Below, in pieces: positions 14,094-15,986 of a DNA stretch of 64,000 bases (the first letter of the stretch is position 1; each line of letters begins with the position of its first letter). The notes under the pieces are model-generated. The model saw only the letters and a program-made list of their open reading frames with translations, had not been told where the DNA came from and searched no databases. The DNA comes from an uncultured Methanomassiliicoccales archaeon. GTDB taxonomy: Archaea; Thermoplasmatota; Thermoplasmata; Methanomassiliicoccales; UBA472. The stretch is taken from positions 400 to 64,399 of the forward strand of contig CAWDCQ010000019.1 in assembly GCA_963800775.1 (NCBI GenBank), written 5' to 3'. A program made the position numbers and the translations under genes.

Positions 14094-15986
14094 ATGAGCC
14101 GCAGGGTGAAGGTGGCCGCGACCGGCCCGGAAGGCAACCGCTCCGAGGATCCTGAAGCGACCCTGGCCCGGATAGAGCCCCTGACCAAGAGGGCGGGCAT
14201 CACCCGCATCGCCGACATTACCGGGCTGGACCGGATCGGCATTCCCGTTTTCTCCACGATCCGCCCCACCGCCGAGAACGGCGCCATCTCCATCTACAAC
14301 GGCAAAGGGCTGACCCAGACCCAGGCCCGCATATCGGCCATCATGGAAGGGATCGAGAGGTACAGCGCGGAGCTGCACGGGGACGTGCTGGTCAGAGAGA
14401 GGATGGACGAGATGCTGGCCAAGGACAACGCGGTCGATCCGCGCGAGCTCATACTCCCGATCTACACCAAGATGAGGCTAAAGGACATGCCCATCGCCTG
14501 GGTGGAAGGAAAGGAAATAGGAGAAGGCAAACCGGTCATGGTCCCGGCCAGCGCCGTGTTCCATCCCTACACCTCTATGGCGGACCTGCAGCTGTTCCGC
14601 AGCAACACCAACGGACTGGCGTCCGGGAACACATTGCTCGAGGCCATCCTTCACGGGCTGTGCGAGGTCATCGAGAGGGACGCCTGGTCTCTGGCCGAGG
14701 TGAAGAGAAAGGTGGTCTCGGACGTGTCCGTGGCCCAGGACGATGGGCTGTTGAAGGCGACGATGGAGCGCTTCACCGCAAAAGGCGTCGAGGTCCACCT
14801 GAAGAATCTGACCAGCGATATTGGGATGCCGGTGATCGCGGCCGCGGCCGACGATGTCCAGCTGCAGGACGCCGGATTGCTGACACTGGGCATCGGTGCG
14901 CACCCGTCCCCGAAGGTCGCGGCATTGAAGGCGTTGACCGAGGTGGCCCAGAGCAGGCTGACCCAGATACACGGGGCCCGGGAGGACGCGGTCATGGCCG
15001 AAGGCAACCGGAAGCTGGGATACGAACGGATGAAACGCATGAACCAGCTGTGGTTCGGGAAAGCGGCCACGAGCATGAGCATCGAGGACATGGAGGGCAT
15101 AGACCGGGGCGATGTCGAGACCAACATAGAGGAGGCGGTGTCCCGGATACACAAGACCGGGCTCAGTTCGGTCATCGCCGTCGACCTCACCCGGAAGGAG
15201 CTGGGGATACCGGTGGTCCGGGTCGTCGTCCCCGGCCTGGAAGTGTTCTCCATCGATTCCGACCGGGTCGGCAGGAGGCTCGTGGAGGCCGGAAAGGAGC
15301 GCCCGGGGATGAGGCCGGTCGTCTTTTTGGGCATGAGCCTGAAGCTGTCCGAGGCCAGGGAGATATTGGATGCCGACTACCGGCCGCCCATCAAAAGGGG
15401 CGACCTTCCCCTGCTGGACGAGAAGGTGCGGTACGTCGGCATCATCGACGGCGTCTTCATGAACGACTGCTCGGTGGGGCACCGGGAGATAATGGCCCTG
15501 CTCAAGAGAGGGGTGACCGTGGTCGGCGGCGGCAGCATGGGCGCGCTGAGGGCCTTGGAGCTCAACGACATGGGAATGATCGGCGTCGGCAAGATCTTCG
15601 AGCTGTACAATAACGGCGAGATCGAGGGAGATGACGAGGTGGCCCTGATCTTCAACCCGGAGACTAACGATCCCCTCTCGGAGCCGCTGGTCAACATCCG
15701 GGCAACGTTGGCCTTGGCGGTGGAGAGAGGGCTTCTGGAGGCGGACCTATCGTCCTCGATCCTGGAAAAGGTGAGGGCGGAGTTCTACCCGAGACGGTCG
15801 ATGCCCCTGATGGTCGAGCTTGCCCGGGGCGTCATGGACCCGGCGGCCTTTCAGGATTTTGCTGATTTCGTAGAAAAATCATCATTTGACCTCAAAAAAA
15901 GGGATGCTATCGCGGTGCTGCAGGAGATCGCAAAAATCATGAAAAATGAAAATCGGGAAAATTCACGAAAAATGAAAATTCCTTAA
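14094..15986 (+). CDS. ycaO: YcaO domain fused in frame to a TfuA domain (McrA thioglycine-forming system)
   Basis: ATG at 14094 in the frame of ORF 13992..15986. YcaO motifs: [50 protein letters not shown]. From ~15309, TfuA motifs: [47 protein letters not shown]. Confidence 0.85.
   Translation: [630 protein letters not shown]

Follow-up and report, generated by a model that had tools for sequence, protein, structure and literature searches.

An apparent YcaO-TfuA fusion beside the mcr operon of a Methanomassiliicoccales archaeon, very probably caused by a single surplus base

Results and Discussion

The 630-aa open reading frame (ORF) that seems to join YcaO and TfuA in one polypeptide, directly upstream of the mcr operon of an uncultured Methanomassiliicoccales archaeon, is very probably an artefact of one surplus base. 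As far as can be judged from the DNA and its relatives, the true locus would be a standard two-gene ycaO-tfuA unit. The surplus base itself most likely arose as an error in sequencing or in the consensus. The analyzed stretch of DNA, 64,000 nucleotides in length, is called the window in the following, and the features of the locus are compiled in Table 1.

The two protein families are known to act together. Deletion of ycaO-tfuA in M. acetivorans abolishes the thioglycine of McrA, and Nayak et al. (2017, eLife, PMC5589413) proposed an ATP-dependent activation of the backbone by YcaO with a sulfide delivery that is assisted by TfuA. In methanogens the stop codon of ycaO overlaps the start codon of tfuA, and Methanomassiliicoccus encodes its MCR operon locally to ycaO/tfuA (PMC5589413).

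Table 1. Features of the ycaO-tfuA-mcr region (positions in the window)
Feature	Position	Strand	Remarks
AsnC/Lrp-type transcription regulator gene	13565-14035	+	directly upstream of ycaO; 95.5% identical to L002 counterpart
ycaO, McrA-glycine thioamidation (methanogenesis marker 1)	14094-15312	+	TIGR03266; 405 aa once the base is removed
Surplus nucleotide	15289-15292	+	window CCGG, relatives CCG or GCG; one C or one G extra
AAAGGAG, Shine-Dalgarno-like	15293-15299	+	9 nt upstream of tfuA ATG, within 3' end of ycaO
ATGA	15309-15312	+	tfuA start codon (15309-15311) overlapping ycaO stop codon (15310-15312)
tfuA, TfuA-related McrA-glycine thioamidation protein, 225 aa	15309-15986	+	NF033432; homologues TfuA-only
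tfuA-mcrB spacer, 237 nt	15987-16223	+	conserved across the order (alignment with 10 relatives)
Inverted repeat in tfuA-mcrB spacer	16002-16038		inverted-repeat search
Perfect palindrome TGGATGGAT-A-ATCCATCCA in tfuA-mcrB spacer	16092-16110		
TATA-like CTTAAAT	16119-16125		directly downstream of the palindrome
Leader hairpin, 9 bp	16166-16195		in conserved leader
Shine-Dalgarno sequence AGGAGGT of mcrB	16212-16218		
mcrB-mcrD-mcrG-mcrA, substrate operon	16224-20426	+	mcrB, mcrD and mcrG frame-broken in the contig; mcrB ATG at 16224
mcrA, intact, 554 aa	18762-20426	+	GFYGYDL at aa 446-452

Domain content of the reading frame

The 630-aa frame runs on the + strand from the ATG at 14094 to 15986; the mechanically derived ORF has its start further upstream at 13992 and comprises 664 aa. 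Pfam assigns the YcaO domain to residues 69-383 (profile positions 1-325 of 325, E 9e-92) and the TfuA domain to residues 452-569 (profile positions 1-119 of 119, E 1e-41). In NCBIfam the N-terminal part scores 468.8 bits against the model TIGR03266 (YcaO-related McrA-glycine thioamidation protein, methanogenesis marker 1, methan_mark_1), for which the curated equivalog cut-off is 365, with residues 16-395 covering profile positions 3-375 of 376. The C-terminal part reaches 246.6 bits against NF033432 (TfuA-related McrA-glycine thioamidation protein; cut-off 235.2) with residues 409-614 covering profile positions 3-210 of 211. Both full-model scores thus lie above the curated cut-offs and assign the two parts to these families. 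The initial annotation had described one 630-aa ORF with a full YcaO and a full TfuA domain and had regarded the parts as the McrA-glycine thioamidation YcaO and its partner TfuA; all motifs that it quoted are found, and both collections of models bear out these identities.

The YcaO model extends to residue 395 and the TfuA model from approximately M406 onwards, which is the picture expected of two abutting genes. The 630-aa ORF is no product of chance; the sequence underlying it is very probably faulty at one base. The completeness of both domains in the fused frame, each above its curated cut-off, also speaks for another explanation, namely a real and recent frameshift in this strain. It would lead to a true 630-aa YcaO-TfuA protein in which a GKERPG linker replaces the terminal ERSARG and its stop codon, and McrA would be thioamidated by one polypeptide. 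We regard such a strain-specific fusion as very unlikely, on evidence from the relatives and from the rest of the contig given below.

The junction and the surplus base

At the junction, frame 0 reads RRLVEA followed by GKERPGM, M406 of the fused ORF being encoded by the start codon of tfuA. ERSARG is found in the +1 frame, which is closed by the TGA of the ATGA. In DNA alignments the window shows GCCGGAAAGG where its relatives have GCC-GAAAGG or GCG-GAAAGG, i.e. a single extra nucleotide at 15289-15292. The shorter allele at the junction is GCCGAAAGG (or GCGGAAAGG), and GCCGGAAAGG is the longer allele of the window. This extra base precedes the tfuA ATG by 17-20 nt and is an indel with respect to L001, L002, L003, L005, L006, L009 and L011.

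At the junction the deposited sequence contains the ATGA and no in-frame stop codon of ycaO, and one surplus base accounts for the difference. If it is deleted, a YcaO of 405 aa is obtained that ends in RRLVEAERSARG with the conserved C-terminus VEAERSARG, and its TGA overlaps the tfuA ATG. The conserved C-terminus of YcaO is encoded in the window with its last six codons out of frame. The surplus base would shift these codons (ERSARG and stop) into the frame of tfuA, where they read GKERPG before the initial Met, and the apparent 630-aa fusion would be the consequence. A caveat to this effect had already been attached to the initial annotation, which warned that an artificial fusion across the ATGA could result from an indel within the final ~30 nt of ycaO; an extra base is indeed found in this stretch.

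The surroundings of the base are strongly conserved. All aligned relatives share GAAAGGAGC without variation, and the closest relatives, with called genes that overlap by 4 nt, likewise show no variation in GGATGA. The AAAGGAG motif is a putative ribosome-binding site for tfuA. A similar spacing between motif and ATG is seen for the AGGAGGT of mcrB.

A further reading could be based on AAAGGAG and the ATG, both intact and conserved. Here the extra base would be genuine, present either as a population variant in the consensus or fixed, and would stay without functional consequence. Internal initiation of TfuA at M406 would then provide free TfuA next to a YcaO with a TfuA tail. As the base is unique to this contig, which is rich in errors, and as the genes are separate in the relative L005 and in 80 species, we consider this extremely improbable. 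Programmed frameshifting or recoding was rejected, since the relatives possess a plain stop/start overlap and share no common shift.

An artefact is our preferred explanation, and some features of the base itself should be kept in mind here. It sits in a dinucleotide (CC or GG) and not in a long homopolymer, a location that favors a real mutation. Moreover, the remaining 1-nt events with a precise placement in the contig are deletions and this one is an insertion. As the shift lies only six codons before the stop, sequence decay offers no means of distinguishing a recent real mutation from an error.

Comparison with relatives

L005, a JGI metagenome contig, shares 96.7% nucleotide identity with the window along 1,857 nt, an alignment with the extra base as its sole indel. 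Judged by this identity, L005 represents a relative at the same-species level. Its called ycaO and tfuA genes overlap by 4 nt, and its YcaO ends in VEAERSARG followed by the stop codon. The same overlap is found in L001, L006, L002 and L003, at 80-89% nucleotide identity.

On the protein level, the 17 closest YcaO homologues (77-92% identity, 401-409 aa) lack a TfuA domain and end in RRL(V/M)EAERS(A/V/T)RG, except for two that end in RGRNR instead. The 120 best TfuA homologues (155-231 aa) contain the TfuA domain only and none of them a YcaO domain; the top match is 97% identical and 225 aa long. A query of 152 aa spanning the junction found no close relative that covers more than 50% of it; the matches covered one half only, and no fragment from the same strain was among them.

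We further scanned one genome per GTDB species, and a fused ycaO-tfuA occurred in none of the 80 loci with YcaO. The overlap amounts to 4 nt in most Methanomassiliicoccales loci of this survey, a few having other small gaps or overlaps instead; the distances between ycaO and tfuA are approximate as they were derived from tblastn coordinates. The comparison with related Methanomassiliicoccales loci hence yields separate genes, mostly overlapping by ATGA. A single-ORF architecture is not shared by the orthologues, be it the 80 species loci, L005, the 17 YcaO and 120 TfuA matches or the matches to the junction query. The covalent YcaO-TfuA fusion that had been proposed is therefore not supported, as separate overlapping genes are found in the same-species relative and in every other relative examined. 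In all of these ycaO ends at the TGA corresponding to 15310-15312 with tfuA overlapping it, which is the arrangement that had been named as speaking against a fusion. The uniqueness of the fused frame to the window contig, in view of L005 and all 80 surveyed species with separate genes, also weighs against a real frameshift of the strain.

Among the first 120 matches P0101 is the only fused relative, at 42% identity. It was considered as a natural archaeal fusion of the McrA type and discarded, since the common forms in its 90%-identity cluster are separate proteins of 403 aa (10 contigs) and 219 aa (4 contigs). The cluster contains two fused variants of 618 and 646 aa, each from one contig, that diverge right after SIDSER. 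Frame slips at the overlapping ycaO/tfuA pair evidently recur in assemblies or populations. A sporadic fused pattern is hence also seen in another archaeal lineage, that of the P0101 cluster.

Further assemblies of the strain were searched for as well. An exact look-up of the TfuA (225 aa) and McrA (554 aa) proteins of the window gave no match. The look-up of the AsnC regulator led to the Logan contig L004, which encodes an identical protein, is 100% identical to the window and breaks off at position 14350, leaving 940 nt to the junction; its run, ERR11630400, may contain the same organism. JGI metagenome contigs were scanned twice for patterns of the junction that allowed 0 or 1 extra base, and neither scan gave a match. 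Since the pattern was valid on L001, L005, L006 and the window, this indicates that the samples concerned are not part of the JGI collection.

Natural fusions in other lineages

Fusions of the two families have been reported from bacteria in association with RiPP gene clusters, namely a tfuA-ycaO fusion in Burkholderia thailandensis (PMC8120280) and three fused YcaO/TfuA proteins in Actinobacteria (PMC6511847). Fused proteins are also numerous among distant representatives in the database and occur in both domain orders, e.g. P0245, P0247, P0254 and P0384 with YcaO before TfuA and P0246, P0248 and P0264 with TfuA before YcaO. Like the ORF of the window they carry both Pfam domains in one polypeptide. 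They differ from it in being only 32-40% identical to the window protein, and several of them (784-902 aa) are longer than two domains. The fusion in the window is absent from its own orthologues and is therefore not a member of any fused lineage. Still, the existence of natural fusions in both orders makes a real fusion biochemically plausible, and the fact that YcaO and TfuA act together anyway (PMC5589413) points in the same direction.

Error load of the contig

The second argument against a real frameshift comes from the remainder of the contig. In the mcr operon alone the window contains four indels that are not a multiple of three: +2 in mcrB at 17415, −1 in mcrD at 17664, −1 in mcrD at 17706 and −1 in mcrG at 18356. 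These were placed with respect to L002 and confirmed by L008, L009, L010, L011 and L058, so that at each position the window stands alone against six concordant relatives; tblastn with the proteins of L002 likewise reveals the frame changes in mcrB, mcrD and mcrG. A hypothetical gene on the minus strand (21414-21949) shows two frame changes. The gene mmp15 (methanogenesis marker 15) is distributed over three frames, with profile positions 1-103, 107-199 and 221-403, which corresponds to two shifts. The frameshifts in mmp15 lie at about 29.7 kb and 30.05 kb. A reference-free scan of codon usage for frame switches across the window mixes gene boundaries with frameshifts and served only for the choice of regions to be examined.

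Taken together, the window contains at least nine frame-breaking indels including the base at the junction, i.e. at least eight others, and six of these are located in mcrB, mcrD, mcrG and mmp15. These four are genes that a methanogen is expected to need. With six indels in such genes it is far more likely that any single indel here stems from error, and the same load counts against a real fusion. Against this indel-rich background the surplus base before the ATGA overlap is most simply regarded as another consensus error.

Of the five indels with a precise position, three are at or beside GATC, a motif that makes up 4.6% of positions (post-hoc binomial p ~0.001). One reading is that the GATC-linked indels might arise from a motif-linked, methylation-related basecalling error.

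The mcr neighborhood

The distance of approximately 240 nt to mcrB that had been given for the end of the gene agrees well with the 237 nt between tfuA and mcrB. In 30 Methanomassiliicoccales genome loci mcrB follows tfuA on the same strand at a distance of 207-374 nt, a synteny that the window shares. The gene order in L002 and L003 is AsnC-ycaO-tfuA-mcrB-D-G-A-DUF2098, and the AsnC/Lrp-type regulator is the same neighbor of ycaO in L001, L002 and L003. The survey extends the known mcr adjacency of Methanomassiliicoccus to these 30 loci.

Compared to the ycaO-tfuA locus of M. acetivorans (PMC5589413), the window contains the same two families and the same target motif in McrA. Its stop/start overlap is that of the methanogen locus (PMC5589413) once the surplus base is removed. 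The neighborhood differs, as the locus of the window adjoins mcr; otherwise no substantive difference is left after removal of the base. With the other Methanomassiliicoccales the window has the order ycaO-tfuA-mcrBDGA in common, but ycaO and tfuA are separate there and only the window contig reads through. Of the idea of a covalent writer placed next to its substrate, the adjacency to mcr is thus real and was already known (PMC5589413), whereas the covalent link is not supported. Neither the placement beside mcr nor the idea of a YcaO/TfuA fusion is new.

The spacer between tfuA and mcrB (Table 1), for which an Rfam search gave no match, may be a putative conserved promoter and leader for mcr. 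Such a promoter and leader would imply that mcr is probably not transcribed together with ycaO-tfuA as one transcript. It is probable that mcr has its own regulated promoter and that the two units are neighbors but separate transcription units.

Proposed working of the locus

In the two-gene reading, ycaO (405 codons) and tfuA (225 codons) would be co-transcribed and, owing to the overlap of the ycaO TGA with the tfuA ATG, probably translationally coupled. The conserved AAAGGAG 9 nt before the tfuA ATG is consistent with such coupling. The target motif GFYGYDL that had been named for McrA is present in the intact protein of the window. Its G449 is, we assume, the candidate thioglycine, as placed by the motif from the thioGly445-Tyr-Asp-Leu context of M. 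marburgensis. Family membership together with published genetics and biochemistry suggests that YcaO and ATP would activate the backbone amide of this conserved glycine and that TfuA would assist the delivery of sulfur, with thioglycine as the product. TfuA is reportedly able to hydrolyse the ThiS thiocarboxylate and thereby to supply sulfide, according to a later report.

Implications

If the extra base was real, the strain would very recently have turned the coupled ycaO/tfuA pair into one polypeptide beside its substrate operon. It would represent a natural experiment, in which the pair for McrA thioamidation tolerates a covalent fusion. Even so the news would be modest, as bacteria are known to possess fused YcaO/TfuA proteins, and YcaO and TfuA work together in any case.

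The preferred reading, one surplus base in a two-gene unit, has its main value as a caution. Given the overlap of a few nucleotides between ycaO and tfuA, one indel close to the 3' terminus of ycaO is enough to produce a clean, full-length “fusion”. The fused ORF of the window is already public as a protein of 626 aa from a contig of 68.6 kb (P0391), which is the window's own gene call, and this deposited “YcaO-TfuA” runs the risk of being mistaken for a new domain architecture. With regard to the biology of the order, the locus merely confirms the known fact that Methanomassiliicoccales keep the genes that install thioglycine immediately upstream of mcrBDGA.

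Reading frame disruptions in the window

Between 16224 and 18758 the reading frames of mcrB, mcrD and mcrG are all disrupted in the contig, unlike that of mcrA, which is unbroken. At each of the indel sites in these genes (Table) the genomes of six relatives are concordant and the window is the odd one out. GATC is found at or adjoining three of the five precisely placed indels in the contig, those at 17664, 17706 and 18356 (post-hoc binomial p ~0.001). Two of the three GATC-associated indels remove one base from a GATC that is kept in most or all relatives, and the +2 event at 17415 breaks a CTAG present in four of six relatives. 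The window as a whole contains 494 GATC compared to approximately 242 expected from base composition. The location of indels at GATC and CTAG suggests motif-linked, methylation-related consensus errors.

Frame breaks also occur outside the mcr genes. Methanogenesis marker 15 (TIGR03286, 404 positions; 29275-30647, forward strand) is spread over three reading frames covering profile positions 1-103, 107-199 and 221-403, which indicates that the frame shifts twice more, at around 29.7 kb and around 30.05 kb. A hypothetical gene on the reverse strand (21414-21949), whose orthologue in the related locus L002 is a 183-aa protein, switches reading frame at two places, around 21547 and around 21775. 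Two long overlapping ORFs of 251 and 180 aa were also observed in different frames at 12751-13506 (forward strand). The corresponding stretch of the related locus L001 is occupied by one DUF169 gene of 235 aa, and the two ORFs may represent an additional frameshift.

Regions flanking ycaO-tfuA

Immediately 5' of ycaO lies a gene for an AsnC/Lrp-family regulator (13565-14035, forward strand), and this neighborhood is conserved in the loci of three relatives (L001, L002, L003) and in L004, a Logan contig that is identical to the window up to its end at 14350. The spacer between tfuA and mcrB (15987-16223) returned no match in an Rfam search, and it is conserved throughout Methanomassiliicoccales, even where YcaO identity is only about 60%. 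The spacer, whose elements are listed in the Table, may serve as operator and leader for the promoter of mcr.

Table. Coordinates of indels and other features in the window
Feature	Position	Details
mcrB indel	~17415	+2 nt; contradicted by six related genomes
mcrD indel 1	~17664	-1 nt; contradicted by six related genomes
mcrD indel 2	~17706	-1 nt; contradicted by six related genomes
mcrG indel	~18356	-1 nt; contradicted by six related genomes
mmp3-mmp6-mmp5-mmp15-mmp17-mmp7 cluster	26940-32132	contains methanogenesis marker 15
Inverted repeat	16002-16038	tfuA-mcrB spacer
Perfect palindrome TGGATGGAT-A-ATCCATCCA	16092-16110	immediately 5' of CTTAAAT
TATA-like CTTAAAT	16119-16125	tfuA-mcrB spacer
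Conserved leader CGCAAGGGGAGCCGATTTTCA	starts 16149	tfuA-mcrB spacer
Perfect 9-bp hairpin	16166-16174/16187-16195	tfuA-mcrB spacer
SD AGGAGGT		tfuA-mcrB spacer

Apparent fusions and a truncated ycaO call in other loci and in databases

In the related MAG MFD00905.bin.2.112 (L011, OY968769.1, ~7001-8198) the gene call for ycaO is truncated (349 aa) and separated from tfuA by a gap of 165 nt; the shortened gene is probably another frameshift.

The fused relative P0101 (L007, 1032-2888) and its cluster members P0392, P0393 and P0395 come from an AT-rich archaeal lineage. The prevailing forms in this cluster are unfused, namely a YcaO of 403 aa (10 contigs) and a TfuA of 219 aa (4 contigs), and the two fused forms of 618 and 646 aa, each found in one contig, differ from each other immediately past ...SIDSER. 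As two distinct fusions occur where separate genes are common, apparent YcaO-TfuA fusions recur at the overlapping ycaO/tfuA pair.

The fused ORF of the window is already present in databases as P0391, a predicted protein of 626 aa on a 68,620-nt contig in NCBI/ENA. P0391 starts at a GTG, codon 5 of the ORF, and shares a 90%-identity cluster with an ordinary YcaO of 405 aa. This entry is likely to give rise to mis-annotation.
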